A stretch of 64,000 bases of DNA from an uncultured Lachnospiraceae bacterium (GCA_964487395.1 CAZAQH010000002.1:864-64863); one strand, 5' to 3'. Positions 14,307 to 52,314 are shown, counted from the first letter of the stretch. Notes: generated by a model not told the origin, from the sequence alone. Made by a program: numbers and translations.

Positions 14307-15494
14307 TTAGATGTATTTTTTTAAGTCATTTACTTTATCAAGTGCTTCCCAAGGAAGATTTAAATCATTACGTCCAAAATGACCATATGCTGCAGTCTGT
14401 TTGTAAATAGGACGACGAAGATTTAACATTTTGATGATTCCTGCTGGACGAAGATCAAAGTTCTCTCTGATGATATCTACTAATTTATTATCATCTACTT
14501 TGCCTGTTCCAAAGGTATCAACCATAACGGAAGTTGGCTGAGCAACACCAATTGCATAAGAAAGCTGAACCTCACATTTATCTGCAAGTCCTGCTGCAAC
14601 AATGTTCTTTGCAACATAACGAGCTGCATAAGCTGCTGAACGGTCTACCTTTGTGCAATCCTTACCGGAGAAAGCGCCACCGCCGTGACGAGCCATTCCA
14701 CCATAAGTATCTACAATAATCTTACGTCCTGTAAGTCCGGAATCGCCGTTTGGTCCGCCGATTACAAAACGTCCTGTTGGATTAATGAAATATTTTGTTC
14801 TCTCATCAACAAGTTCCTGTGGAATAACAAGATCAATAACGTATTTGCGAACATCTTTATGAATCTGTTCCTGTGAAACTTCTTCTGCATGCTGAGAAGA
14901 AATTACTACGGCATTAATATGAACCGGTTTACCATTTTCATCATATTCTACAGTAACCTGTGATTTTCCATCTGGTCTTAAATAAGCAAGAGTACCGTTT
15001 TTACGAACCTCTGTTAATTTCTTGGTCAATTTATGAGCAAGTGCGATTGGATAAGGCATGTATTCTTCTGTCTCATTGCTTGCATAACCAAACATCATAC
15101 CCTGATCGCCTGCACCAATTGCTTCAATCTGTGAGTCTGACATATTAGCTTCTTTTGCTTCTAATGCTTTATCAACTCCCATTGCGATATCAGCTGACTG
15201 TTTGTCAAGAGCAACCATAACACCACAAGTATTAGCATCAAAACCTTTTGCAGAATCATCATATCCGATTTCTCTGATGGTATCACGTACAATACTTTGT
15301 ACATCAATCTGTGCTTTTGTTGTAATTTCTCCCATTACCAGAACTAATCCGGTTGTAATAGCTGTTTCACATGCTACACGGCTGTTTGGGTCCTGTGCCA
15401 TAATAGCGTCTAAGACTGCATCTGAGATATTATCACAGATTTTGTCAGGATGTCCTTCTGTTACTGATTCCGAGGTAAATAATCTTTTTTCCAT
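14307..15494 (-). CDS. metK: S-adenosylmethionine synthetase
   Basis: Motifs [26 protein letters not shown] and GGGAFSGKD. Start set to the ATG at 15494 (MEKRLF...), preceded by an AAAGGAGAA RBS; the longer track ORF start at 15536 is unlikely. Confidence 0.93.
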
Positions 15495-15561
15495 CTCTTG
15501 TTCTCCTTTAATAAATTGATTTACGGGTAATTTCACAGCATACTCTGCTGTTTTCTAGAAT

Positions 15562-15612: not shown

Positions 15613-15714
15613 TCCTCTTATTGTTCGACTTTTTCGCTCAGGTTGGCACCTTCCAATTATGGGGTTGCCGTGGCTTCACAGGTCCTATGTACCTCCACCA
15701 CTCTGAATAAGAGA
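15613..15714 (-). promoter_or_regulatory. SAM-I (S-box) riboswitch aptamer in the metK leader
   Basis: The minus strand reads CUCUUAUUCAGAGUGGUGGAGGUACAUAGGACCUGUGAAGCCACGGCAACCCCAUAAUUGGAAGGUGCCAACCUGAGCGAAAAAGUCGAACAAUAAGAG. The P1 pairing (CUCUUAUU / AAUAAGAG) and the conserved GGUGGAGG, GAAGCC.CGGCAACC and GGUGCCAA blocks match the S-box consensus as I recall it. Confidence 0.9.
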
Positions 15715-34383: not shown

Positions 34384-37300
34384 TTACAAAGATGAATGAA
34401 GAAGTCTGCTGATTTCCTGTAAATCGTTAATGCAGACTTTTTCTTTTTTTCTGTCGTAAGTAAGCAAACCGTTTATCTCATCTTCAACGTCGCTTAACTG
34501 CGTATAAACGCAACCGCATAATCCCTTAGGGATAGCCGGAATAATCATTTCCTTGTACATACTTATCATTTTCTTAGTCACATCTTTTTCACTTTCACAA
34601 TTTCCATAACCATAATGAGTGTATTTACTGTAAAAATGGCCAGGTATTGCAAAGGAATATCCGCCGCATTCAGACACAAGGGTTGGTTTGTGATGTGATA
34701 CCGGAACCTTCTTGTTATTATAATAAATATGGAGACTTTTTACTTCTGTCTTTTTTCCAAAAAACCATCCTGATGTTGTGTCAATAATTCTGGTGGTGTC
34801 TTTGGATTTTATGGTCTCATACATTGCATCACTGTCAAACTGTCCCCAGCCTTCATTAAAAATTGTGTAGTAAACAATACATGGGTGGTTATAAAGTGTT
34901 TCAACTGTTGCAATGCTGTGTTTTACAAAAATTCTTTTTCTTTTCTTATTACCGTTAAAGCGATGGTCGTTACGATGAAATTTACCAAGGTAAGGCATTG
35001 CGGTGTCTCTAAAAAAGGAATAATGCCCATTATTGACCATATCCTGCATTACAAGCATTCCCAGTCTGTCACATGCATAGTAGAATGCCTCCGGTTCAAT
35101 TTTAATATGCTTCCTGAGTGTATTAAATCCCATTTTCTTCATTGCAAGAATATCTTCTTCATACGACTTCTCACATGCCGGTGTATAGATTCCATCACTG
35201 AAATAACCCTGATCCAAAACTCCATGAAGAAAAATTGGTTCACCATTTAAGCAGATACGTTGTTGTCCTTTTATATCTTTAATCTCAATTGTACGTAATG
35301 CGAAGTAGGAATTGACCTTATCCTCTCCTGCTGATATCTGAATCGAATACAAATGTGGGGAATCCGGCGTCCACAATTCAGGCTTGTATTCTTTACCAAG
35401 CTTTTTCATTTCCTCTACCAAATCAATGCGGAATTCTTCATCATAACTCATTGCTGTTATGGTATCGCCCTCTATCGGAATTGTCACATAAACAGGAACT
35501 GGAGATGTCCTATTAACTTTGAGTGTAATCCCTGTTTTATATGGTGTTATTTTAATATTCTTAATATAATCTTCCGGCACACTTTCAAGCCACACCGACT
35601 GCCAGATACCGCTTATCGGTGTGTACCACATTCCACCGCGTTTCCTGCATTGTTTTCCGTATGGATAATTCTCTGAAAGTAAATCAATAACCTTAACTTC
35701 CAGAATGTTTTCCATATTGTCATTTTTTAAATAATCAGTTATGTCAACTTCGAAAGGGAGATAGCCACCTTCATGTTTTGTTAATAATGTATCATTCAAA
35801 AAAATCTCGGCAATCTGATCCACTGCTCCAAAATGAAGCAACACTCTGCCTTTTATAAAATCCTCTGGAATGGTAAAACTCTTTATGTAATGCAGATGGA
35901 AGCCTGTAAATTTATGATATCCCGATAAAATAGACTGTGGTGCAAACGGAACTCTTATTGTATTCCGGTTCAACTGCCATTCACCATTTAATGATATGTA
36001 GGAATTACGCTTCATCTGCGGTCTCGGATAAGCCTTCCACGGCTGCTCACCGTTATTCCATTTATCGAGACATTTTTCTCCAAGGTCTGTCATTAAATCA
36101 TGATGTCCATGTCGAATCATTTCAAAAATTCCACCAAGGACAAATAAAAGGACAATGGCTGCCACAAATGCAGCTGCATATATATTATGATTAGGAATAA
36201 AGGATGTGGTTCCGTCACTATTTTGAATCGTCTTTGCATTTTTTAGAACTGCTGCCCCAATTGCCGGTCCGACAATACCCGGAATAAATACCTGTCCAAA
36301 TATACGAAGGCCCTGAAAAAGCCCAGCTTTTTCCCTTGGAATGTTGTCACGAATCATTGCTCCAAAAATAGCCATGCCTGTTAAATAACCTGTCATCATA
36401 AAAAGGGAACCAGCAAAAACCGAAATGGTATTGGTAAAAAAGAATAAAAAGAAATATCCGACCATCAACATGATTATCGTCAGAAGCACTGACATTCGAA
36501 ATCCCACCATGTCATATAATTTCCCGTAAAAAGCGGTAATCACAGATGCCAGAATAATAGCAGGTGCCATAATAAGTACATAATTGTTAAGTCCTAAGCT
36601 CACCTCATAATAAAGAATCAGATATGGCATAAAAATCTGAATCGAAATTCCAAATACTGCAAAGGCAAGCACGACCATATAAAGCAGTTTATGATTTTTA
36701 AAGACGCTTGGACGAAAACTGTAAATAAGATTCTTAAAGTAGCTTTTATTTTCATCCGATGCCACTGCATGATCTTCCATTAGAAAAATACATAGAATAC
36801 CGATTAAAATTACTGAAATACCTATAATCAGAAAAATGGTGATCCAGCTTTTCTGTAACTCCAGATTAAAAGCCATAAAACCACCAAAGACAACTAATAT
36901 AGCAACTAAAGGCATCATGGAATTGATGCCTTCTATTTTTCCTCTGTTCGTGTCATCTCCACTATCCGTAAGCCATGCATTGAAGCAGGCATCATTAGCG
37001 GATGACCCAAAGAAAGTCATGACACAGTCTAACAGTATAACAAGTGAAATACCTAAAGATGCAGCCTCAATTACGGAGCCTGTCAATTTTTCAAGTATAT
37101 CCATTCGAATCAATGCAAAGGACAGAATCGAGATACCCCAGACGATATATCCCCCGCAAACAAATATTTTTCTTTTTCCAATTTTATCAGAAAGCGCTCC
37201 TATAAGCAGAGTAGTAAGGGTAGCCGCTACTGCACTTGCTCCAACCATAAGTGATATATCTGCTGCACTTGCATGAAACATTTTATAGAGAAAAACATTA

Positions 37301-37392
37301 AAATACATATTCTCCACTACCCATGCAATCTGTCCAATCAAGCTTAAAATCACCATGGTAATCCAGAATTTCTTTCCCAATTTTGTCTGCAT
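34384..37392 (-). CDS. fusion protein: 12-TM MFS/GPH-like transporter (N-terminal, about nt 36076-37392) plus glycoside hydrolase family 2 enzyme (C-terminal, about nt 34387-36075)
   Basis: Single 1002-aa ORF. I count 12 hydrophobic helices in aa 1-435. Then come a GH2 sugar-binding domain (LNGEWQL...FGAVDQIAEIFLNDTLLTKHEGGYLPFEVDITDYL) and a TIM barrel with candidate acid/base (IFNEGWG) and nucleophile (LVSECGGYS) glutamates. Confidence 0.8.
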   Translation of the reverse strand: MQTKLGKKFWITMVILSLIGQIAWVVENMYFNVFLYKMFHASAADISLMVGASAVAATLTTLLIGALSDKIGKRKIFVCGGYIVWGISILSFALIRMDILEKLTGSVIEAASLGISLVILLDCVMTFFGSSANDACFNAWLTDSGDDTNRGKIEGINSMMPLVAILVVFGGFMAFNLELQKSWITIFLIIGISVILIGILCIFLMEDHAVASDENKSYFKNLIYSFRPSVFKNHKLLYMVVLAFAVFGISIQIFMPYLILYYEVSLGLNNYVLIMAPAIILASVITAFYGKLYDMVGFRMSVLLTIIMLMVGYFFLFFFTNTISVFAGSLFMMTGYLTGMAIFGAMIRDNIPREKAGLFQGLRIFGQVFIPGIVGPAIGAAVLKNAKTIQNSDGTTSFIPNHNIYAAAFVAAIVLLFVLGGIFEMIRHGHHDLMTDLGEKCLDKWNNGEQPWKAYPRPQMKRNSYISLNGEWQLNRNTIRVPFAPQSILSGYHKFTGFHLHYIKSFTIPEDFIKGRVLLHFGAVDQIAEIFLNDTLLTKHEGGYLPFEVDITDYLKNDNMENILEVKVIDLLSENYPYGKQCRKRGGMWYTPISGIWQSVWLESVPEDYIKNIKITPYKTGITLKVNRTSPVPVYVTIPIEGDTITAMSYDEEFRIDLVEEMKKLGKEYKPELWTPDSPHLYSIQISAGEDKVNSYFALRTIEIKDIKGQQRICLNGEPIFLHGVLDQGYFSDGIYTPACEKSYEEDILAMKKMGFNTLRKHIKIEPEAFYYACDRLGMLVMQDMVNNGHYSFFRDTAMPYLGKFHRNDHRFNGNKKRKRIFVKHSIATVETLYNHPCIVYYTIFNEGWGQFDSDAMYETIKSKDTTRIIDTTSGWFFGKKTEVKSLHIYYNNKKVPVSHHKPTLVSECGGYSFAIPGHFYSKYTHYGYGNCESEKDVTKKMISMYKEMIIPAIPKGLCGCVYTQLSDVEDEINGLLTYDRKKEKVCINDLQEISRLLHSSL

Positions 37393-39126: not shown

Positions 39127-41742
39127 TCAATATAGGAACCGCTCTCTGAATTCCTCCAACGTTTTTCTGATTTCTACTTCAAGTTCTCTTGATGATATCA
39201 ATTGGCAGCCCTGTCCGCGGATGATAATCTGTTCCAGTCCATCTGATGTTGCCACTGTAATATCATAATTTTTTGCATTTTCATGTGTAAAACGCTCAAT
39301 GTACTGGTCTGCTGTTTCTGCCTCTTTTGTATAAACAACATGAATATTCTGGTATGTTAATATTTCTGTTTTATGTCCTTGTATACGGTATGCATCAAAT
39401 ACTAAAATCAAATTACAACCTTTAATCGATTGGTAATTACTCAGTATGTCCATAAGTTGTCCGCGGGCACCATCAATATTAATGTCTGCCAATTCCTTTA
39501 ATTCTTTCCATGCAAATATAACATTATAGCCATCTACCAGCAGGTACTTATCCTTTTTGGGGCTTGGCTGGTAAACGCGTGTTGTAGAATCCGCTGTTCT
39601 GTTTTTTTCCGCTGCCGTTACTTTTCTTTTTGCTGAAATTCCTTTATGGGAAATAGGCTGACTTTTCTTATTGGCATAAAACGTTCTCTGTAAAATACTA
39701 TCTATTTCCTCTAAATCAATTGTCTGCTGTAAAGACGACATATCACGCATGCGTTCTCTTTTTTGTTTTTCCCTTATTGCCTGCTCCTCTAATGTCAGTT
39801 CTGAAGACTCATCATTTTCACTGCTGTTTTCTATTATACATGGCAAATGAGCATAATCCATTACCTGATCCCAGGGTACAATAACGCCTGCACCATGCGT
39901 ACAGAACACAGAGCCTGTCGGATTATCCAAATCCGCTTCCGGATCATAAGTAACACCTTCTAAAATTTCCTCTTCATTATGACAAGGTTCATAGCCTGCC
40001 ATAGAACAAGATAATTTTCCATGTCCCTTTGAATAGGATAGCACTTCTGTAATATATCCACGCATCGTAACAACCGGTGCTTTTCCTGTTAATGTCGTAA
40101 ACCCATCCGTGACGGATTCGATTGCAGAAGTCCCATACATTTTATCAATGTCATTCATGGCTCTTCCCACCATATTATCTGGTATCTCCAGGCGATATGC
40201 ATAAACCGGCTCTAATAATCTGACATATGCCTGCATTAGGCCCTGTCTGATTGCACGGTAAGTAGCCTGTCTAAAATCTCCGCCTTCTGTATGCTTCGTA
40301 TGTGCACGCCCGTTTATAAGAGTAATACGCATATCCGTAATCGGACTGCCTGTCAGTACTCCCATATGTTCTTTTTCTTTTAAATGTGTAAGAATCAGTC
40401 TCTGCCAATTTCTATCCAAAACATCCTCACTGCACTGTGTATCAAACTGCAACCCACTTCCAGGTTCACCCGGTTCCATTTTTAAATGTACCTCAGCATA
40501 ATGGCGAAGCGGTTCAAAATGTCCTACTCCCTCTACTGTATTACATATCGTTTCTTTATATAGAATATTACCCTCTGCAAAAGATATTTTTACACCAAAA
40601 CGTTCTAGAACCATGCGTTTGATGATTTCCGTCTGTACCTCACCCATAAGTTTAATATGAATTTCTTTTTCTGATTCTTTGTATGCAATCTGTAATTCCG
40701 GTATTTCCTCTTCTAATTGACGAAGCTTCGGTAAAAGCATCAAAACATCCATATCGTCTAAAATTTCAATCTTATAAGACAGGACGGGTTCTAAAATCGG
40801 ATTACCTGACTCCGGTTCCATGCCAAGTCCCTGTCCCGGATGTGTTTTTATCAGTCCTGTCAGTGCACAGACCATTCCTGCCATAACTTCCTGTACAATT
40901 TCAAATTTTTCTCCAGAGTATACACGTATCTGATTGACTTTTTCTTCGCCAATAATATCCTTTACTTTAAGCTTCCCACCAGTTATTTTTAAATAGGTCA
41001 GGCGGTTTCCCTGTTCATCCCTTGCAATTTTAAATACTTTGGCACCAAACTCATCAGAATACCGGATTACCTTACTATATCTGTCTATTCCCGTCAAAAA
41101 TTTCTCAACACCCGATACCTTTAAAGCAGATCCAAAATAACAAGGGAACAATTTACGTTTCCAAATCAATTCTTGTATCTCTTCGTCCGAAATCTTTCCA
41201 CTTTTCAAGAAATGGTCTAACACTTGTTCGTCACACATAGCAATATTTTCAAAAAGTACCGTTTCTTCCTGTTCCGTAAAATCTATACAGGAGCCCGCTA
41301 ACTGCTGATTGATTTTTTTTAATATTAATGTCTTATCTGTATCCGGCTGATCCATTTTATTAATAAAAAGAAATACCGGAATACGATATTTCTTTAATAA
41401 ATCCCATAAAGTTCTGGTATGACTCTGCACGCCATCCGTGGCACTTATTACCAAAATAGCAGCATCAAGCACCTGCAGAGTTCGTTCCATCTCCGCTGAA
41501 AAGTCAATATGACCCGGTGTATCTAATAATGTAATCCGTGTATTTGAGAAATTGAACATAGCCTGCTTGGAAAAAATGGTAATCCCACGTTCTCTTTCCA
41601 TTTCATTGTGGTCTAAAAAAGCATCTTTTGCATCAACTCTGCCCAATTTGCGAATTTCACCGCTGACATACAGCATTGCTTCTGATAATGTAGTTTTTCC
41701 GGCATCCACGCTTGCAAGTATACCTGCCACTAATTGATTCAT
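39127..41742 (-). CDS. fusion protein: Tet(M)/EF-G-like translational GTPase (aa 1 to about 640) plus YacP/Rae1-like NYN ribonuclease domain (aa 732-871, nt 39130-39549)
   Basis: Single 871-aa ORF. G1 is ASVDAGKTT, G3 is DTPGH and G4 is NKMD, and the protein is colinear with Tet(M) through domains II-V. After a charged linker, the C-terminus reads KYLLVDGYNVIFAW...LVFDAY...KEAETADQYIE...VATSDGLEQ, matching B. subtilis YacP as I recall it. Confidence 0.8.
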   Translation of the reverse strand: MNQLVAGILASVDAGKTTLSEAMLYVSGEIRKLGRVDAKDAFLDHNEMERERGITIFSKQAMFNFSNTRITLLDTPGHIDFSAEMERTLQVLDAAILVISATDGVQSHTRTLWDLLKKYRIPVFLFINKMDQPDTDKTLILKKINQQLAGSCIDFTEQEETVLFENIAMCDEQVLDHFLKSGKISDEEIQELIWKRKLFPCYFGSALKVSGVEKFLTGIDRYSKVIRYSDEFGAKVFKIARDEQGNRLTYLKITGGKLKVKDIIGEEKVNQIRVYSGEKFEIVQEVMAGMVCALTGLIKTHPGQGLGMEPESGNPILEPVLSYKIEILDDMDVLMLLPKLRQLEEEIPELQIAYKESEKEIHIKLMGEVQTEIIKRMVLERFGVKISFAEGNILYKETICNTVEGVGHFEPLRHYAEVHLKMEPGEPGSGLQFDTQCSEDVLDRNWQRLILTHLKEKEHMGVLTGSPITDMRITLINGRAHTKHTEGGDFRQATYRAIRQGLMQAYVRLLEPVYAYRLEIPDNMVGRAMNDIDKMYGTSAIESVTDGFTTLTGKAPVVTMRGYITEVLSYSKGHGKLSCSMAGYEPCHNEEEILEGVTYDPEADLDNPTGSVFCTHGAGVIVPWDQVMDYAHLPCIIENSSENDESSELTLEEQAIREKQKRERMRDMSSLQQTIDLEEIDSILQRTFYANKKSQPISHKGISAKRKVTAAEKNRTADSTTRVYQPSPKKDKYLLVDGYNVIFAWKELKELADINIDGARGQLMDILSNYQSIKGCNLILVFDAYRIQGHKTEILTYQNIHVVYTKEAETADQYIERFTHENAKNYDITVATSDGLEQIIIRGQGCQLISSRELEVEIRKTLEEFRERFLY

Positions 41743-41868: not shown

Positions 41869-42456
41869 ATGAATACAAAAAAAGATAAAAAAATATTATG
41901 GACTTTATTCCGTTCTATGTTTATATTAAGTGCCTGCACCTTTGGCGGAGGTTTTGTAATTGTTTCTTTAATGAAGAAAAGATTTGTGGAAGAATTAAAC
42001 TGGATGGACGAAGATGAGATGTTAGATATTACAGCTATTACACAATCCTCCCCCGGACCGCTTCCAGTAAATGCCTCTGTTATTATTGGATATCGTATGT
42101 ATGGCGTAGTGGGTTCTTTGGTTGCAATTTTAGGAACCATTCTTCCACCTATGATTATTATTTCAATTATTTTCGTTTTCTATAATGAGTTTCGCACTAA
42201 CCGTTATATTGCCATTGCCCTGCAGGTTATGCGTGCCGGTGTTGCGGCTGTTATTTTTGATGTGACCATTAATCTTGCAAAAAATGTATGTAAAACACGG
42301 CGTGTTTTATACATTGCCATGATGGTTATATCCTTTGTTTGTGTCGTATTCTTTTCGGTCAGTGCAATGTATATCATTTTAAGTTGTCTGCTTATCGGCA
42401 TTATTGATCTTCTCTTTAGTCTTAGAAAAGAGAAAGGAGGTAACTCCTCATGTTGA
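41869..42456 (+). CDS. chrA: chromate transporter family protein (short-chain CHR, first half)
   Basis: 195 aa with the CTFGGGFV motif; paired with and overlapping the next gene. Confidence 0.8.
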   Translation: MNTKKDKKILWTLFRSMFILSACTFGGGFVIVSLMKKRFVEELNWMDEDEMLDITAITQSSPGPLPVNASVIIGYRMYGVVGSLVAILGTILPPMIIISIIFVFYNEFRTNRYIAIALQVMRAGVAAVIFDVTINLAKNVCKTRRVLYIAMMVISFVCVVFFSVSAMYIILSCLLIGIIDLLFSLRKEKGGNSSC

Positions 42457-43013
42457 TTCTTCAATTATTTTTAAGTTTTATACAGGTCGGTTTATTCAGC
42501 ATTGGTGGTGGATATGCCGCCATTCCTCTTATACAGGATCAGATAGTAAATAAGCATGAGTTGCTTACTCTTGCAGAGTTTAGTGACTTAATTACGATAG
42601 CTGAAATGACACCAGGACCCATTTCCATTAACTCCTCTACCTTTGTTGGTATGCGTCTATCCGGTCCATTTGGTGCCGTCATATGTACATTAGGCTGTAT
42701 TATTCCGTCCTTTATTATATGCCTGACGCTCGCTCATTTTTATTATAAATACCGCAATTTTGCCGGAGTACAGAAGTTACTTGCCTCTCTGCGTCCTGCC
42801 GTTGTTGCGTTAATCGGTTCTGCCGGACTCTCCATTTTATTATTAGGATTATTTCAATCTGATTTATGGCACGTAAAATTAGACAATTTTCATGTGATTG
42901 AAGGTATTTTATTTGCCGGATGCTTATTTATATTACGGAAATGGAAAGCAAACGCCATTTCCATTATCTTAGGAAGTGGCGTTGTCGGTACTGTTCTTTA
43001 TTTGATTTTTTAG
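42450..43013 (+). CDS. chrA: chromate transporter family protein (short-chain CHR, second half)
   Basis: 187 aa with the SIGGGYAAIP motif. It overlaps the previous gene by 7 nt, the typical split-CHR pair. Confidence 0.8.
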   Translation: MLILQLFLSFIQVGLFSIGGGYAAIPLIQDQIVNKHELLTLAEFSDLITIAEMTPGPISINSSTFVGMRLSGPFGAVICTLGCIIPSFIICLTLAHFYYKYRNFAGVQKLLASLRPAVVALIGSAGLSILLLGLFQSDLWHVKLDNFHVIEGILFAGCLFILRKWKANAISIILGSGVVGTVLYLIF

Positions 43014-43684
43014 AATCTTACTTCTTCATCATGCGATAATAGAGATAATTGTTGGATGTAGGACTTCGCTGATAGTTGCTCTAATAATTCCTGCTCCTGT
43101 TTGGTATGTATTTCTAAAATAATATCGCAACCTGTCTTTTTTCTATTTCTTGACATTATTTTAAAATGCTTGGAATACGTTTTGATATTCTGTATAATCT
43201 CATCTTCATTTATATTTGTATCACAGTTTAAAACAAGCAAATATGGTTTTTTCGTTTCCGGTAAATATTCTAAAACAAATATTCCAATTGTCACCATCAA
43301 TGCGACTATAAGAGCAATTTCAAATAATCCGGCTCCACAGATTATTCCTGTTCCGATTGACCAAAATAAAAACAGTAAATCCATAGGGTCTTTTATTGCT
43401 GTTCTAAAACGTACAATAGAAAGTGCACCAACCATACCAAGTGATATTACAATGCTTGATTGCATTGCGACAATAATACCTGCTGTAATTACTGCAATAA
43501 TCGCCATTGATACATGAAAGCTTTTATTATAAAAAGCACTTCTTGTAACAAGTTTGTAGATGAAATAAATATACAACGCAATTAAAAATGTAACTCCAAG
43601 TGTTAAAATAATCTGAATTGTTGAAATATCTGTGTTTGAAAATCCCTCTAAAACTGATTTTTTTATCGTATCTGTAATTGACAT
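43010..43684 (-). CDS. DUF4956 family membrane protein
   Basis: 224 aa with about four TM helices, the family-typical block LSIVRFRTAIKDPMDLLFLFWSIG, and a C-terminal soluble domain of about 80 aa. Confidence 0.75.
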   Translation of the reverse strand: MSITDTIKKSVLEGFSNTDISTIQIILTLGVTFLIALYIYFIYKLVTRSAFYNKSFHVSMAIIAVITAGIIVAMQSSIVISLGMVGALSIVRFRTAIKDPMDLLFLFWSIGTGIICGAGLFEIALIVALMVTIGIFVLEYLPETKKPYLLVLNCDTNINEDEIIQNIKTYSKHFKIMSRNRKKTGCDIILEIHTKQEQELLEQLSAKSYIQQLSLLSHDEEVRF

Positions 43685-43696
43685 ATAAGTGACTCC

Positions 43697-44380
43697 CTAT
43701 TCTATATTTTGATTAACTCTTGCATAATAATATTTTGAATATGATGTTCTCTGTAAGGTTCCTGTATTTAAGATTTTTCTGATATAATCCGGCAGAAATT
43801 CATCATATTTTACCTCAAGTATATGCTGACCGGAAGGTAAAACCGGAATACCAGGAAGTACCTCGTCCCAAAAAGTCTCTGCCTCACAGGTTCCGCTTAT
43901 ATTCTTATCAAATGTAATTCGTACATTGCCCATTGGTTCTACAAAAGCAGTTCTCTCATATTCCACAATACACTTTGGCGATAACATACGCGTAGATGCC
44001 TGAACATACAATTTCTTTTTTAAAAATCCATCTTCCTTATTCATATCCGGAATTTCTCCACGAATATATTTCATACAGTCATCTAATGAAATTCTCTCGG
44101 ATCTTTTACTTGTGTATCCACGTGTTTTGCTTTTCTGTTCAAGTTGAATCAGCGACTTATCATTATTATAAGTTCGTATTCGAAACTTTTCACGTTCATC
44201 AGTACCTATTTCATTATCACAAAGACACGAATCGCACATGTCATCAAAGTAAACACTTCGAATTAAATAGGCATCTTCTTCTATATGTGAATCGTGTTTC
44301 ATGTAACTTTGCAGTTCTGATTGCAAACACACTATCTGTGCATCTGTCACTATGTATTTATCTTCTACACGATATTCCAT
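43697..44380 (-). CDS. VTC-domain (polyphosphate polymerase / triphosphate-tunnel) protein
   Basis: 227 aa with no TM or signal segment. N-terminal tunnel-type motif (YRVEDKY) and alternating basic/acidic beta-strand motifs (FRIRTY, ILEVKY) as in the VTC/CYTH fold. Confidence 0.7.
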   Translation of the reverse strand: MEYRVEDKYIVTDAQIVCLQSELQSYMKHDSHIEEDAYLIRSVYFDDMCDSCLCDNEIGTDEREKFRIRTYNNDKSLIQLEQKSKTRGYTSKRSERISLDDCMKYIRGEIPDMNKEDGFLKKKLYVQASTRMLSPKCIVEYERTAFVEPMGNVRITFDKNISGTCEAETFWDEVLPGIPVLPSGQHILEVKYDEFLPDYIRKILNTGTLQRTSYSKYYYARVNQNIE

Positions 44381-44409
44381 GCATTTCTCCTATATTTATT
44401 TTCTGATAA

Positions 44410-46257
44410 CTACGGCTGCTTGTAAACAAATACTGTTTCTTCTTTTATCAGTAAATTCTCCGTTGTCTGTTGTCCCGTAATTTCCTCACACCATATACTA
44501 TCAGAGACATCCTGCACAACAGGTAACTCACCTATGGCTTTTCCATCTTCTATGTAACGCACCTCATATACAAAATCATCTTTCATGAACTTAACAATAT
44601 GATGTTCCTGGTCGTCTATCCACACTGAATCAAGAAATTGCTTTCTTTTTTCTATGAAATCCGTAAGTTCTTTAAAACTTGTCTCTCTGTCTGTAAAATA
44701 AGGATTGCTCTCATACTCTTCCTGCCATCTGATATAATCCATATCGGCAGATTTATTTAGCATCTCTTTATAATAATTAATTTCCTCTGTCGACTGCTTC
44801 ATAAGATATGGAGCCACTCTATCCTCGTAATAGTCTATGATTAAATCATAAAATTCTTCTTTTTCGTATAATGCATCAAACCAGTTCGTAGAAAAATCAT
44901 GTACGGATAATTTACTGATGCCTTCCGGATCAGAGGAAAAATATTCCATCCATTCAAGATAATTGCCAAAAGTCATATCAAAGTCCCAGCCGGGGCCTGC
45001 AAATATATGTCCGTTTATTGTATCCGAATCCTTGTAAAAAAAAGAACTCGAAACACCTGCATCATAATTTTTACTTACTTCTTCAGTTAGATATTTTTTA
45101 ACAAAAGATTCTATATCTATGTATTCTGTATATTTTTTCCCTGTAGCAGAATTAATTCCGTCTTCTGCTAATATGGCTTCTTCCACTTCATTACAATATC
45201 CTGAAATATAATCAATCTGTTCCACGGAACAAAATCCCGGCGATTTTACAATGAAATGTTCACTATGATTTGTCACAAAACTACTTGGAGTTTCTTCATA
45301 TTCCAGATGATAACGATCTCCAAATTCACGCTCTATTAAATAGCCACCGGTAATATCACTTGGCAAAACATCCAGAACTTTAGCTTTTTTATTACCTGTT
45401 TTATAAGTTGCAAATGAATTGTAATCATATTTATTATAGATTTGGTTCATCTGCTCTTCTAAGTTAGTAATCGCAATCCGCTGTGGTCCAATCTCAATTT
45501 GGTCACAGAGATAATAATTACCCTGATATTCACCATTTATATACAAATCTACAAATTGCCCTCTGCCTGTATGTAAAACACCTAACTCTTCTTCCATTCC
45601 TTTTACAATATCATTACGAATCAAGGTTGGGTCCGATGCATTAGCTACCAGAACATAATCTTTTCCTACCGGCAGTCCAAGCAGGGAATGCTCTGTTTTG
45701 ATAGAAATAGTGAAGGGTTTTTTCTCATAATTATTCCAGGAATAATTGCCTCTACCCTTAATAAAATCAAGTCCTGTATTATAGTCAGTCTCACCTTCAG
45801 CGGTCTTTACACTAATCTTTCCATTTTCTTTATTATTCTTGTCGGCAAGAATATTCGTAAGGCCACCGGAATCCGTTGTAATAAACACAGATGGTAGATT
45901 TTCGGACTTCATAATATATAAAACAAAGGATGTTCCATCTTTTTTAAATGTACAATTTATCTCTTTATTTATTGGCAGATTAGCAAGCGACGTTTTATGT
46001 TTAATTAATTCACCACGATCCGTTATCGTAAATTTGTCCGAATAATTGGTTAAATGCATATCTGCTAACTCTGCATATGAAGGCAAAAATAAATAATATG
46101 TACCGTCTTTTTCCCATGTATCTATTGTCTCGTCCTTAATTGAGAAATAAAGAGTCTTTTGACCGGAGGCCAGACTATCACGATTATCGACCATTATTAT
46201 TACAATAAGCCCGATAACGGATAGAAGAATTAAAAAACCTTTAAAAATATTTCGCAT
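44410..46257 (-). CDS. CotH kinase family protein with an N-terminal signal anchor
   Basis: 615 aa. N-terminus MRNIFKGFLILLSVIGLIVIIMV, then a CotH-like core (KGRGNYSWNNYEKKPFTISI, LRNDIV, YINGEYQGNYYLCDQIE, WDFDMTFGN). Confidence 0.75.
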   Translation of the reverse strand: MRNIFKGFLILLSVIGLIVIIMVDNRDSLASGQKTLYFSIKDETIDTWEKDGTYYLFLPSYAELADMHLTNYSDKFTITDRGELIKHKTSLANLPINKEINCTFKKDGTSFVLYIMKSENLPSVFITTDSGGLTNILADKNNKENGKISVKTAEGETDYNTGLDFIKGRGNYSWNNYEKKPFTISIKTEHSLLGLPVGKDYVLVANASDPTLIRNDIVKGMEEELGVLHTGRGQFVDLYINGEYQGNYYLCDQIEIGPQRIAITNLEEQMNQIYNKYDYNSFATYKTGNKKAKVLDVLPSDITGGYLIEREFGDRYHLEYEETPSSFVTNHSEHFIVKSPGFCSVEQIDYISGYCNEVEEAILAEDGINSATGKKYTEYIDIESFVKKYLTEEVSKNYDAGVSSSFFYKDSDTINGHIFAGPGWDFDMTFGNYLEWMEYFSSDPEGISKLSVHDFSTNWFDALYEKEEFYDLIIDYYEDRVAPYLMKQSTEEINYYKEMLNKSADMDYIRWQEEYESNPYFTDRETSFKELTDFIEKRKQFLDSVWIDDQEHHIVKFMKDDFVYEVRYIEDGKAIGELPVVQDVSDSIWCEEITGQQTTENLLIKEETVFVYKQP

Positions 46258-46275: not shown

Positions 46276-46578
46276 TTAGTTTTCGTAATCCATACACATT
46301 CTGGTAGCCATATTGGGTCTCACAACGGTAGTTGCCACTTCAACATGCAGCGGATTTACTGTATAAGCATTAAGCGAAGCTTCATCTGTAAATGTAGAAT
46401 CTAACATCAGGTCAGCATTAGATGTTGGCAGCATTTCAATTTGTACATGAATTTTCTGCAGTCCGTCAATTTTTCCCATAAGACCTTCTAATCCCTGTTT
46501 TACATTCTGTTTGATTATCTTTTTTTCTTCTTCTGTCTTATCTTCTTTAATTTTCCATAGAATAATATGATGTACCAT
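46276..46578 (-). CDS. Dabb (stress-responsive alpha/beta barrel) family protein
   Basis: 100 aa. Begins MVHHIILWKIKED, with a HVEV motif near the C-terminus, as in Dabb domains. Confidence 0.7.
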   Translation of the reverse strand: MVHHIILWKIKEDKTEEEKKIIKQNVKQGLEGLMGKIDGLQKIHVQIEMLPTSNADLMLDSTFTDEASLNAYTVNPLHVEVATTVVRPNMATRMCMDYEN

Positions 46579-46589
46579 TTATGTCTCCT

Positions 46590-47507
46590 TTATTTTAAAA
46601 ATCCATTTACAATTTGTTCTTCTGCTTCTGCTTCTGTCAAACCAAGTGTCATAAGTTTAATCAACTGTTCGCCTGCAATTTTGCCAATTGCAGCTTCATG
46701 AATCAGACTGGCATCCACATTATTGGCTGTAAGTTCCGGAATTGCCGTTACACTTGCACTATCCATTATAATGGCATCACATTCCGTATGTCCATTACAT
46801 TCATTATTTCCATTTATGACTGATAAAAATTTCTGATGTGAATTGTTCTTGGCAACGGATCTTGAAACAACATTGGCACTGCATCCCTCTCCATCCATAT
46901 CAACCGTAAAATCAGTTTCTGCATACTGATTGCCATGTGTCATTATTTTTTCATGGATAATCAAAGTGGCATGATCTCCTAACTGTCCTTTTGTAATACG
47001 CTTAGTGGAATCGATACCCTTAATCTGAGCCGTCTCCATTTCCATGTAAGCGCCTTCTTTTAAATTGACAATAGTAGTAGGATTCATAAGATTTTGTCCA
47101 TTACCATCGCCTTCTCCATAATGCTTTTCGATATATTTTACCTTGGCATTTTTTTCAAGAAAAAAACTGTGAATTCCATCATGCCCCGAATCCTGGTCAC
47201 CACAATTGTGAATGCCACATCCTGCTACAATCGTAACATCCGCATTTTCTCCAATGTAAAAATCGTTGTATACCAAATCATTTAATCCCGTCTCGCTGAT
47301 AATAACCGGAATATGAACGCTTTCATTTTTAGTACCCGGTGCGATAATAATATCAATACCCGGTTTATCTTCCTTGGTTACAATATTTATATTAGCTGTC
47401 GTATTACGACTGTTCAATTTTCCATTTTCACGAATATTATATGCTCCGGTCGGCACTCCATGGATATCCGCTATTTCTTCTAATAGATTTTTCTGTATTG
47501 CATCCAT
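46590..47507 (-). CDS. short SufB/SufD-family Fe-S assembly scaffold protein
   Basis: 305 aa. Beta-helix core and the C-terminal block LIHEAAIGKIAGEQLIKLMTLGLTEAEAEEQIVNGF, typical of SufB/SufD. Confidence 0.8.
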   Translation of the reverse strand: MDAIQKNLLEEIADIHGVPTGAYNIRENGKLNSRNTTANINIVTKEDKPGIDIIIAPGTKNESVHIPVIISETGLNDLVYNDFYIGENADVTIVAGCGIHNCGDQDSGHDGIHSFFLEKNAKVKYIEKHYGEGDGNGQNLMNPTTIVNLKEGAYMEMETAQIKGIDSTKRITKGQLGDHATLIIHEKIMTHGNQYAETDFTVDMDGEGCSANVVSRSVAKNNSHQKFLSVINGNNECNGHTECDAIIMDSASVTAIPELTANNVDASLIHEAAIGKIAGEQLIKLMTLGLTEAEAEEQIVNGFLK

Positions 47508-47524: not shown

Positions 47525-48268
47525 TTAATTGTTCTTATCTAACAATACGTCACAAGTACTGCCACCTGCTGTTGCCAGCAATTTGGGGAGAATTTCTTCT
47601 TTTGTTCCTATCCCATCAACTTTACCATCTGCAATAATGATGACTTTATCTGCTATATTTAATATTCTTTCCTGATGAGAAATAATAAGAATAGAGCCAT
47701 TTATTTTATCATGCATTTTTTCAAACACATTAATCAGGCTGTTAAAGCTCCATAAATCAATTCCTGCCTCAGGCTCGTCAAAAATAGAAAATTTAGTCCC
47801 TCTTGCTATAATCATAGCAATCTCTATTCTCTTTAATTCGCCACCCGAAAGACTTGCGTTCACTTCTCGATTAATATAATCCCTTGCACAAAGTCCGACT
47901 TCTGACAAAATATTGCAGGCTTCTTTTACACTGGTACTCTTGCCAGCTGCCAAAGTGAGTAAATCCTTAACTGTCAGTCCTTTAAAACGAACCGGCTGCT
48001 GAAATGCATAACTGATTCCCTTCTGTGCACGTTGCGTAATGGATAAATCCGTAATGTCTTCTCCATCCAGTAAAATTGTTCCTGAAGTCGGTTTGATAAT
48101 ACCTGCCACAATCTTGGCAAGTGTTGATTTACCGCCGCCATTAGGACCTGTTATTGCGACAAAACGTTCATCTATTTTCAGATTAACATCTTTTAGTATT
48201 CCTTTATTTTCCAGAACACTTTTTGTTTCATCCTGTACTTCGTACCAAATATTTTGTAACTCCAGCAT
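47525..48268 (-). CDS. sufC: Fe-S cluster assembly ATPase SufC
   Basis: 247 aa with Walker A GPNGGGKST, signature LSGGELKR and Walker B IFDEPEAGID. Confidence 0.85.
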   Translation of the reverse strand: MLELQNIWYEVQDETKSVLENKGILKDVNLKIDERFVAITGPNGGGKSTLAKIVAGIIKPTSGTILLDGEDITDLSITQRAQKGISYAFQQPVRFKGLTVKDLLTLAAGKSTSVKEACNILSEVGLCARDYINREVNASLSGGELKRIEIAMIIARGTKFSIFDEPEAGIDLWSFNSLINVFEKMHDKINGSILIISHQERILNIADKVIIIADGKVDGIGTKEEILPKLLATAGGSTCDVLLDKNN

Positions 48269-48285: not shown

Positions 48286-48855
48286 CTACTGCACTTTATC
48301 TTTTTTCTTAATTAAAAATCCAAAAGCACAACCGCAAAGTCCACCTATTATATGAGTAAAATGAGAAACATTATCTTCTGTAAACACTCCAGCATAGATT
48401 TCTTGTCCCAAATACAATACAAGAACCAGAATTAATGTAAGTGGAATTCTTCCATCTGAAAAGCCCACCATGGAAGATAGTACAATTAATAAAAACACAA
48501 GACCACTTGCTCCTAACAATGCCGTATTGGGAAAAATCAGCATATTAATAAGTCCTGTTACAAAAGCTGTGATAGCCATCATAATTACAAGCAGGATACT
48601 TCCATATCGTTCTTCAACCATTGGACCTAATAACAATATCATCATCATATTGCCTACATAATGTTCCAAATTAGCATGACCAAGAACATGACCAAATAAA
48701 CGAATATATGTAAAAAGATCACTAAAAGGTGCCCTATAAACACTAAATAATAAAGCATTGGTATATCCTCTGGTCACCCAGTTTAGAAACAATGTCAGCA
48801 AAGAAATAATTGCAAATGTTAAAATGACCGGTGAATTATATTGTATCTTTTTCAT
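48286..48855 (-). CDS. rhomboid family intramembrane serine protease
   Basis: 189 aa with six TM segments, HANLEH, catalytic GASGLVF and the His in HIIGGLCG. Confidence 0.8.
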   Translation of the reverse strand: MKKIQYNSPVILTFAIISLLTLFLNWVTRGYTNALLFSVYRAPFSDLFTYIRLFGHVLGHANLEHYVGNMMMILLLGPMVEERYGSILLVIMMAITAFVTGLINMLIFPNTALLGASGLVFLLIVLSSMVGFSDGRIPLTLILVLVLYLGQEIYAGVFTEDNVSHFTHIIGGLCGCAFGFLIKKKDKVQ

Positions 48856-51160: not shown

Positions 51161-52314
51161 TTATTTATTAATATCTTCTATTTTACGCTGTTGCTTTATC
51201 AGATAAAGTTCTTTATCTGCCTGAGCAATCAGTTGTCTTGCTGATACCATGTCTTCGTTAAATTCACTATATCCTATGCTGATTGACAGGTTATATTTTC
51301 TGTTTGTAGCTTCATTGTCTTCCTGCATTGCTTTTAAAATATTCTCTTTAAGATCGATAACATCCTTTTCTTTCATACATTCAAAAAGAACCACAAATTC
51401 ATCGCCACCATACCGTGCTAAGAAACAATTGCGTAATCCGCAGACCCTTTTTAAAATATCTGCCACTGTCTTTAATGCATCATCACCCTCGACATGACCA
51501 TATGTATCATTAATCTTTTTGAAAAATCAATATCAATCATCAATAGTAACAACTTATTTTTACGGCTTTGTGAACTTATACGCGATGTTAAATGTCTGGT
51601 CAGCTGATGACGGTTATTTAACTCTGTCAGCGGGTCCATCGATATCTGATGTTCCTGCAAGGAAATAAATACAAACAAGAATGATAAACTGATTCCTGCA
51701 TTTAATAACGGAATTCCCATAAAAGCGACCTGAAATGTTCCACATATAAATGGCAGGATAATAAAAGATGCCAGTGTCAATTCTTCTGTTTTTTTAACAT
51801 AAGTTTTTTCTTTCAGTCCATATATAAATGCCTTAACCGCAGAATATATAAGATAGGCATAGGAAACTAAAACCTGCAATGGATACAACCATTCCCGATG
51901 ATAAACATTGTATTCATCAACAGAAAACATCCATCCTGTCCATATAGACGAAAAAGATGAAACAAACAAAACAAGTAACGGCAGAGTTGCAATGATATGT
52001 CTTGTTAACTGTTTTCTATTAGAGCAATTTAATACACTATTATTAAATAAATACCAAGAATACCCAAGATGACCTGCCTGGAATAAATAAACAGCATTAA
52101 CAAGCAAATTTAATTCATGAGAAAACGCATAATTCGTCCCATCCAGTAAGCCCCATACAAGGTCAAGCGCAAATAGCACTATTGCATTTACCAGCGTATA
52201 AACAAACAAGGTTCTCTTTCCTAAAATACTTCCCATGAACCACATTTTAAAGAGAATAATGCCCAATATGATAATACAAATCGCATTTATTTCTACATAT
52301 AATGCAGCAACCAT
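51161..52314 (-). pseudogene. membrane-anchored GGDEF diguanylate cyclase with a 1-nt frameshift
   Basis: Track ORFs 51472-52314 and 51161-51466 are two pieces of one gene. The reading LLLLMIDIDF breaks in a T5 run (plus-strand A5 at 51522-51526). One extra base would restore [33 protein letters not shown]...ARYGGDEFVVLF. Total length is 1154 nt, one short of a multiple of three. Confidence 0.8.

Follow-up and report, generated by a model that had tools for sequence, protein, structure and literature searches.

Can a bacterium make polyphosphate (polyP) with an enzyme of the yeast VTC type, and might the product reach a kinase-like protein on the outside of the cell? The question is raised by three adjacent genes in a 64,000-nucleotide (nt) stretch of DNA from an uncultured Lachnospiraceae bacterium (GCA_964487395.1 CAZAQH010000002.1:864-64863; the whole stretch is hereafter the window, and positions are counted from its first letter). 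They encode a CotH-family protein, a protein with the VTC domain and a membrane protein of the family DUF4956. In bacteria the synthesis of polyP is credited to PPK1 and PPK2, and VTC counts as an invention of eukaryotes; in a 2023 review the domain was mapped across eukaryotes only. A reading of the window from its sequence alone (the original prediction) had proposed that VTC and DUF4956 make polyP at the membrane and thread it outward, where CotH might use it; overall, this interpretation is partly supported by the analysis presented here.

A putative polyphosphate polymerase

The list of open reading frames (ORFs) reproduces exactly the three minus-strand genes, their lengths in amino acids (aa) and the gaps of 29 nt (CotH/VTC) and 12 nt (VTC/DUF4956) on which the original prediction was built:

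44410..46257, minus strand, CotH gene, 615 aa
43697..44380, minus strand, VTC gene, 227 aa
43010..43684, minus strand, DUF4956 gene, 224 aa

Shine-Dalgarno-like motifs (AAGGA, GGAG, GGGAG) stand upstream of all three starts. The predicted family assignments hold as well, all of them above the Pfam cut-offs: CotH (PF08757) with E 7.8e-33 and 114.8 bits against 23.8, VTC (PF09359) with E 2.1e-41 and 142.4 bits against 23, and DUF4956 (PF16316) with E 1.5e-10 and 41.5 bits against 30.6. None of the three proteins is covered by an NCBIfam model.

The VTC match extends over residues 4-218 of the protein and positions 2-228 of the 235 in the Pfam profile, and a Kyte-Doolittle scan finds zero hydrophobic segments, as expected of the soluble protein that had been predicted. 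The family is large, with 1885 homologues at E <= 1e-5, and the few that are named, from Lachnospiraceae, carry the NCBI name 'polyphosphate polymerase domain-containing protein'. Single-sequence searches of the PDB with each of the three proteins gave nothing useful, and profiles were required. With a profile of 24 VTC sequences the catalytic domain of yeast Vtc4 was retrieved from the PDB (3g3q, E 1.4e-4), and hhalign aligned the bacterial profile to eukaryotic Vtc4 fragments with 91% probability (E 9e-7). The AlphaFold2 (AF2) model, a closed beta-barrel tunnel predicted with high confidence (pLDDT 90.2, pTM 0.87), points to the same enzyme: in Foldseek its top PDB matches are the Vtc4 structures 3g3r, 3g3q and 8i6v (TM-score 0.71-0.74, E 1e-14), whereas other tunnel enzymes (ygiF, CYTH proteins, ThTPase) score 0.55 or less.

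Profile alignments map R4, K8, R67, R69, K83, Y141, R143 and R154 of the bacterial protein onto R196, K200, R264, R266, K281, Y359, R361 and R373 of yeast Vtc4, respectively. The profile tools stop at a eukaryotic insertion that precedes the last strands; beyond it, pairwise alignment pairs the ILEVK motif (E189 = E426, K191 = K428) with the eukaryotic VLEVK, and the SK[YF] motif, SKY in the window protein (S215 = S457, K216 = K458), with FSKF. A profile of the C-terminus alone did not recover Vtc4, and hhalign on C-terminal pieces misaligned them in global mode and aligned ILEVK only in local mode. All the bacterial residues named here are invariant in 24/24 homologues, which bears out the expectation that the tunnel residues of Vtc4 would be conserved. 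According to cryo-electron microscopy, polyP synthesis by yeast Vtc4 requires K200, R264, R266, K281, Y359, R361, S457 and K458; E426 chelates Mn2+, and K458 is the one residue that differs in the inactive Vtc2/3, which have I/L there (bioRxiv 10.1101/2023.01.27.525886). At the corresponding K216 the window protein retains Lys, as in active Vtc4. Resembling Vtc4 in every computational test applied, the protein is a putative polyP polymerase that would consist of a soluble, stand-alone tunnel domain; neither an SPX domain, nor a membrane domain, nor any further Pfam family was found in its 227 aa.

An invariant pair and a frequent third member

Two surveys were made, one anchored on VTC (the best 80 of at least 596 sites in species-representative genomes, mostly of Lachnospiraceae and Oscillospiraceae, with some Treponema and Bulleidia) and one on DUF4956 (80 metagenome loci at 32-63% identity). 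Both cover the best matches to the window subfamily rather than all DUF4956 proteins, such as those of Bacteroides. DUF4956 adjoins VTC in 77/77 genome loci with enough downstream sequence, including all 55 that have full flanks, and VTC adjoins DUF4956 in 39/42 metagenome loci and in 25/25 with full flanks; the co-occurrence on which the original prediction had staked itself is thus very strong for this pair. CotH lies within a few genes of VTC in 49 of the 55 genome loci with full flanks and adjoins the pair in 22 of the 25 metagenome loci, that is, in 88-89% of full-flank loci overall. The notion of a trio acting as a unit has to be adjusted accordingly: the invariant core is VTC plus DUF4956, and CotH is a very frequent but not obligate third member.

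In the two relatives syntenic with the window (L001 and L003, VTC identity 61-70%) the trio has Suf-type genes upstream, as in the window, where a Dabb gene also stands there (listed further on; L001 is without Dabb), while in L004-L009 (about 55% VTC identity) the same trio lies between radA and thrS, with no Suf genes. The trio therefore stays together while its surroundings change, and chance does not account for its adjacency, since this set of genes turns up in different contexts across families. A second gene order, VTC-DUF4956-CotH instead of CotH-VTC-DUF4956, is common in the more distant DUF4956 metagenome loci (L123, L126, L128, L131, L133, L138, L150-L152, L154, L159, L165, L166), and the CotH proteins encoded there are far more divergent (E 1e-11 to 1e-26 against the CotH profile).

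Copy number varies too. Tandem CotH paralogues stand beside one VTC-DUF4956 pair in many related loci (three in L011 and L074; two in L043, L046, L048 and L056), and two complete modules lie within 8 kb of each other in L010 and L015.

CotH: a kinase-like domain predicted outside the membrane

Two parts of the CotH protein matter for the argument:

46189..46248, minus strand, N-terminal signal anchor or signal peptide, about aa 4-23, FKGFLILLSVIGLIVIIMV, preceded by R2 and K6
44623..45762, minus strand, kinase-like catalytic region, about aa 166-545, with K180, D399 (NYD) and D425/D427 (WDFD)

The original prediction held that the sole hydrophobic segment of CotH is N-terminal and places the rest of the protein outside. 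The Kyte-Doolittle scan agrees, finding a single segment (aa 4-22, maximum 2.77); an N-terminal hydrophobic segment recurs in 52/52 module-linked homologues, of which only 3 have any second one, and a streptococcal homologue has been reported in the secretome of S. gordonii (bioRxiv 10.1101/2024.04.20.589940). These observations lend good support to the predicted extracytoplasmic position of the kinase-like domain.

Module-linked CotH proteins are highly divergent (13-65% identity), as expected of surface proteins. The profile of the 52 homologues nonetheless matches B. cereus CotH (5jd9, chain residues 43-356) at E 3.2e-26, and the key columns are largely kept: K180 in 49 of the 52, D399 in 43, W424 in 51, D425 in 44 and D427 in 46. 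In B. subtilis CotH, mutation of the catalytic residues D228 and D251, 23 residues apart, inactivates the kinase (PMC7821199). D399 and D425 of the window protein are 26 residues apart, the aligned Asp pair of B. cereus CotH 23, and on this spacing and the motifs D399/D425 probably equate to B. subtilis D228/D251; both catalytic Asp residues are kept in the window protein. No cotB- or cotG-like neighbours of the window CotH were found.

At the metal-binding Asp (D425 in the window), 7 of the 52 aligned CotH proteins have Arg, which suggests that some of them may be pseudokinases. A paper on Zetaproteobacteria stalks contains only an unrelated SH3-CotH protein.

DUF4956: a predicted five-helix membrane protein distantly akin to MgtC

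The features of the DUF4956 protein used below are the following:

43268..43621, minus strand, membrane domain, aa 22-139 (AF2 helices 22-46, 54-74, 77-95, 100-117 and 121-139)
43376..43444, minus strand, family-defining motif SLGMVGALSIVRFRTAIKDPMDL, aa 81-103, at the end of transmembrane helix 3 and in the loop between helices 3 and 4
43016..43243, minus strand, C-terminal ACT / ferredoxin-like domain, aa 148-223 (AF2 and Foldseek)

DUF4956 is the most conserved member of the trio, with 80% identity to its L001 homologue (P0123), against 70% between the window VTC and its L001 counterpart (P0002), and its length is fixed at 224 aa. The AF2 model consists of an N-terminal amphipathic helix, five membrane-length helices and a C-terminal beta-alpha-beta-beta-alpha-beta domain. 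The protein is polytopic and has the LSIVRFRTAIKDPMDL block (aa 88-103), as predicted; the number of membrane helices is better given as five than as about four. Foldseek matches are limited to the C-terminal domain (the NikR C-terminal domain, the ACT domain of phosphoglycerate dehydrogenase and PII-like proteins, E 3e-3 to 3e-2).

Over 57 family members at 27-52% identity, Y43, G83, G86, A87, R92, R94 and G113 are invariant; at S81, L82, L88, S89, I90, F93, A96, K98 and D102 conservation is at least 90%, and K98, D102 and W108 are nearly invariant. This is the signature GALSIVRFRTAIKDP, which runs from the last part of helix 3 into the next loop. The charged residues around the modelled helices suggest an N-out, C-in topology, in which the basic RFR..K loop and the ACT domain would be cytoplasmic. 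By analogy, the RFR..K loop sits where a polymerase would dock and recalls the rings of basic residues that surround the entrance to the yeast channel, a likeness and not evidence of a pore.

The Pfam MgtC profile (PF02308) hits the window protein below threshold (13.9 bits against a gathering score of 31.4, E 0.07, aa 60-141), and it matches 20 of the 57 diverse DUF4956 members at E<=0.01, the best at 2.9e-6. Judged by these profile scores, DUF4956 is a distant relative of MgtC and not a member of that family. A preprint on S. intermedius assigned MgtC to the homologue there on the basis of CDD and assigned an ACT domain likewise, the locus being printed as SIR_1952 and elsewhere as SIR_1592 (bioRxiv 10.1101/2024.04.20.589940). 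A library-wide search returned 5724 DUF4956 clusters; the long matches among the top 150 of them include no genuine fusion to VTC or CotH. The sole long match, P0506 (386 aa), joins DUF4956 to a citrate-synthase fragment and is most likely an artefact of assembly or gene calling.

Glycopolymer neighbourhoods and pel operons

In 15 of the 55 complete loci the module is embedded in the arrangement [GtrA or purple-acid-phosphatase-like]-CotH-VTC-DUF4956-GT2-GT2-Bac_transf-LCP-GT2; the GT2/Bac_transf/LCP set is a toolkit for the assembly of lipid-linked glycopolymers and their attachment to the wall. Across the 80 genome loci the recurrent Pfam-annotated neighbour clusters are GT2, Bac_transf, LCP, GtrA, YdjC, purple acid phosphatase and a transport ATPase, and never Pel. 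In the C. perfringens locus NELoc-2 the module stands beside a chitin-synthase-like glycosyltransferase (PMC2879425), and the theme common to all these neighbourhoods is exported glycopolymers.

Two observations concern the loci themselves. In NELoc-2 (CP4_0460-0465), two VTC-DUF4956 pairs lie on either side of a resolvase gene and are followed by CotH and the glycosyltransferase (PMC2879425); the 'tubulin/FtsZ, GTPase' genes after each VTC gene, with products of 222-226 aa at the cytoplasmic membrane, are very probably mis-named DUF4956. In six loci, a gene for a purple acid phosphatase-like or other calcineurin-type phosphoesterase with a signal- or lipoprotein-like N-terminus diverges beside CotH:

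L028, L029, L031, L033, L045 and L064, divergent phosphoesterase gene, position -2, opposite strand

An exported phosphoesterase next to the module fits phosphate chemistry outside the cell.

The original prediction was right that the literature defines no function for the trio by experiment, but the module had previously been described: cotH, a 'poly-phosphate polymerase', DUF4956 and DUF4832 are an accessory group of Gram-positive pel operons, in which CotH might regulate Pel through protein phosphorylation (Whitfield et al. 2020, PMC7112168). For the genes SIR_1592-1594 of S. intermedius the described products are a CotH that is secreted and has the catalytic residues, a tunnel enzyme of the VTC kind and an MgtC-like protein of several helices that ends in an ACT domain (bioRxiv 10.1101/2024.04.20.589940). 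In the window the three families are likewise contiguous and co-directional, with no exopolysaccharide cluster anywhere in the 64 kb and no Pel-family or GT4 gene among the 49 ORFs scanned, a few smaller or overlapping ORFs lying outside the scan. According to the same preprint, pel operons were the only place where the combination was found; the surveys contradict this exclusivity, stand-alone and GT2/Bac_transf/LCP-linked forms being common. The cassette is therefore a stand-alone example of a module already described and functionally uncharacterised, and the module itself is not new.

A proposed membrane-spanning relay and its rivals

Tentatively, and somewhat short of an even chance for the full chain of steps, I read the three genes as one functional module spanning the cytoplasmic membrane, a relay of polyP or phosphoryl groups to CotH. 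On the cytoplasmic side of the membrane, VTC would use ATP to polymerise phosphate; DUF4956, probably oligomeric, would dock VTC through its basic RFR..K loop, its ACT domain or both, and would pass the polyP chain or phosphoryl groups across; and CotH, cut off from cytoplasmic ATP, would draw on what is delivered and attach phosphate or polyP to a polymer of the cell surface, most likely a wall- or matrix-associated glycopolymer. Elsewhere the module sits in pel operons or in GT2/Bac_transf/LCP loci. An outward passage of polyP, or of its phosphoryl groups, is plausible and unproven; it agrees with the geometry, with the near-obligate linkage and with the glycopolymer neighbourhoods. The structure models are of single chains, and the coupling of VTC to DUF4956 is a genomic measurement. 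Since co-occurrence is very strong, CotH is placed outside and the tunnel residues are kept, none of the computational outcomes that the original prediction had named as refuting it was observed.

Several points weigh against the relay. The C-terminal part of the VTC residue mapping is a short alignment of modest significance, its score being reached by 24 of 500 shuffles, and the DUF4956 model is of moderate confidence (pLDDT 71). No likeness of DUF4956 to the Vtc1/DUF202 channel was detected: PDB sequence search gave no match to any VTC subunit, and Foldseek none to the VTC membrane chains. MgtC proteins are regulators, and their family is not known to form channels; nor is the use of polyP as donor known for any enzyme of kinase fold. 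The VTC-like channel of the original prediction thus finds no support in DUF4956, which resembles ACT proteins in its C-terminal domain and MgtC at a distance, and the outward threading of polyP stays purely inferential. About 11% of VTC-DUF4956 pairs have no CotH nearby and so can function in its absence. The only genetic evidence is negative: when the trio genes of S. intermedius were deleted one at a time, neither aggregation nor Pel production was altered, and the authors suggest that polyP stays cytoplasmic (bioRxiv 10.1101/2024.04.20.589940). A full-text literature search returned no functional study, and none of the bacterial members has a known biochemical activity.

A rival arrangement, somewhat unlikely in my estimate, keeps the polyP made by VTC in the cytoplasm. 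DUF4956 would be a tether or regulator in the membrane, akin to MgtC, with an ACT domain for the sensing of a metabolite or of phosphate or Mg2+ status; CotH would then be co-regulated only, for instance in an envelope-stress or biofilm programme, and draw its donor from elsewhere. The MgtC-like signal in 20 of the 57 family members, together with the same five-helix plus ACT architecture, speaks for it, as do the lack of likeness to Vtc1, the cytoplasmic polyP favoured by the S. intermedius authors and the pairs that stand without CotH. It leaves unexplained, however, why an exported kinase-fold partner accompanies the pair in 88-89% of loci, whichever of the two gene orders they have and in many contexts, and why the neighbours so frequently build exported polymers, and it still gives an extracytoplasmic kinase no donor. 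A bolder reading, and a less likely one still, is that VTC plus DUF4956 might be a bacterial polyP synthase-exporter of an origin independent of the eukaryotic channel, with the same catalytic tunnel and an unrelated, MgtC-derived conduit, whose exported polyP feeds extracytoplasmic CotH kinases that modify wall or matrix glycopolymers. If true, Gram-positive bacteria would thereby have a means of phosphorylating extracytoplasmic substrates that does without ATP.

Doubt may also fall on the enzyme. The triphosphate-tunnel superfamily includes triphosphatases and cyclases, some of them among the structural matches (ygiF, CYTH, ThTPase), and Vtc2/3 have the same fold yet are inactive; the VTC protein might accordingly be a triphosphatase, a nucleotide cyclase or a sensor of polyP or PPPi, acting with DUF4956 in signalling or in ion or phosphate homeostasis. 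This is quite improbable given that the best structure and sequence matches are of the VTC type (TM-score 0.72-0.74 against at most 0.55; 142 bits for Pfam VTC) and that all the residues for polyP synthesis in Vtc4 are conserved, K216 = K458 included. Less probable again is that the trio is a Pel-specific accessory set of which the window copy is a remnant detached from its operon. Its position downstream of pelDEA(DA)FG in streptococci, clostridia and bifidobacteria (PMC7112168; bioRxiv 10.1101/2024.04.20.589940) and the reported absence from other settings would suit this origin, but no pel gene is present among the ORFs scanned in the window, relatives supply nine independent contexts without pel genes, the recurrent neighbours at the 80 genome loci never include Pel, and all three proteins are strongly conserved, unlike a decaying remnant. 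Unless a pel operon elsewhere in the genome requires the trio, the data argue against Pel exclusivity. The relay to CotH remains the tentatively preferred reading.

Genomic setting of the trio

The trio forms the 3' end of a tightly packed string of same-strand genes, with gaps of 11-18 nt in its upstream part:

48286..48855, minus strand, rhomboid gene, first of the string
47525..48268, minus strand, SufC-like ATPase gene, upstream of the SufBD-like gene
46590..47507, minus strand, SufBD-like protein, 305 aa, with SufC-like a minimal two-gene SUF-type Fe-S pair
46276..46578, minus strand, Dabb stress barrel gene, directly upstream of CotH at a spacing of 18 nt

Because these head-to-tail gaps are so short, the trio is probably transcribed by read-through from the upstream rhomboid, SufC, SufBD and Dabb genes. 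A promoter and terminator scan gave neither a convincing promoter nor a convincing terminator in the Dabb-CotH interval, and promoter-like sites in the scan were at chance level (30 observed against 31 expected). As members of the module SufC, SufBD, Dabb and rhomboid were rejected, since they are linked to the trio only in the closest relatives, L001 and L003; Suf/Dabb-type upstream genes are not with it in L004-L009 or in the survey loci. Downstream lies a convergent pair of chromate-transporter genes, and the 3' end of one of them (42450-43013, plus strand) overlaps the stop region of DUF4956 by 4 nt (43010-43013); there is no space for a terminator between the converging transcription units.

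Rfam detects no riboswitch near the cassette. Base composition is even over the window, so that nothing marks the cassette as an island, and the rest of the window holds housekeeping and transport genes (dnaE, pfk, metK, Trk, P-type ATPase, ZIP, MntP, MCP and GGDEF genes). Here the trio is a stand-alone copy among housekeeping genes.

Other features of the window

Rfam gives one match in the whole window, upstream of the gene for S-adenosylmethionine synthetase (14307-15536):

15615-15713, minus strand, SAM-I riboswitch, 75 bits

In a gene for a membrane-anchored GGDEF diguanylate cyclase (51161-52314, minus strand), a frameshift of one base within the T5/A5 run of GATTTTTCAAAAAG leaves two ORFs: frame 1 ends in MIDIDFSKRLMIH and a stop, and frame 0 goes on with FFKKINDTYGHVEGDD to the GGDEF motif. 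Its orthologue in L001 (a 70%-related locus) is likewise called in two GGDEF pieces, of 287 and 68 aa, and the split could reflect a pseudogene, homopolymer phase variation or a shared assembly error. Two fusion proteins, both kept in L001 and L003, were also observed. One (871 aa, 39127-41742, minus strand) joins an EF-G/Tet(M)-like GTPase (GTP_EFTU, EFG_III/IV/C) to a C-terminal YacP-type NYN nuclease; the other (1002 aa, 34384-37392, minus strand) joins a transporter of the MFS family (aa 29-376) to a family-2 glycoside hydrolase (aa 461-890), an unusual union of transporter and glycosidase in one protein.

Significance

What emerges is a large bacterial family with an intact Vtc4-type active site, tied to one membrane partner and usually to a surface protein of kinase fold. 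Three questions are thereby made testable, namely whether bacteria have a third route to polyP, whether polyP can be delivered to the surface and from what source CotH kinases outside the membrane are fuelled. Widespread in gut Firmicutes, and common among the Lachnospiraceae and Oscillospiraceae of the gut, the module also occurs in loci of pathogens (C. perfringens NELoc-2, streptococcal pel operons), and a role in surface polymers or host interaction would give it practical reach. Should it be only a cytoplasmic polyP synthase with a regulator, the outcome would be an ordinary refinement of annotation.

Comparison with known systems

The yeast VTC complex shares with the bacterial trio the catalytic tunnel domain, as judged by Pfam, by the closest predicted fold and by the triphosphate- and Mn-binding residues of Vtc4, K458 among them. 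In both cases the enzyme is encoded with a dedicated membrane partner, and the basic residues of DUF4956, probably at the cytoplasmic face, would be analogous to the K24/R31 rings of Vtc1. The bacterial polymerase differs in being a separate soluble protein of 227 aa and not a fusion, without SPX and without a three-helix membrane domain of the DUF202 type. DUF4956 is unrelated to Vtc1, being MgtC-like with five helices plus ACT; the target compartment would be the cell exterior and not the vacuole.

With the accessory genes of pel operons the correspondence extends to the same three families, the order CotH-VTC-DUF4956 and the same predicted locations. The window trio differs in lacking an adjacent pel gene and the DUF4832 glycosidase, in a CotH with no detected FN3 domain, and in its place within a housekeeping region of a Lachnospiraceae-like genome. 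Bacillus CotH (5JD9) has a homologous kinase-like domain (profile E 3e-26), whose catalytic and metal-binding Asp residues are kept in the window protein as D399 and D425. The Bacillus protein has no signal sequence and uses ATP on coat proteins in the mother cell, whereas the window CotH is anchored by its N-terminus, is longer by about 140 residues at that end and by about 70 at the C-terminus, and is linked to VTC and DUF4956 instead of cotB/cotG.

The MgtC/SapB proteins, finally, resemble DUF4956 in a hydrophobic N-terminal domain of about five helices followed by a C-terminal ACT-like domain, and the Pfam MgtC similarity across the conserved core, though weak, recurs within the family. 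The window DUF4956 scores below the gathering threshold of that family, and DUF4956 differs from it in bearing the signature motif GALSIVRFRTAIKDP and in being genomically coupled to VTC rather than to Mg2+ transporters.

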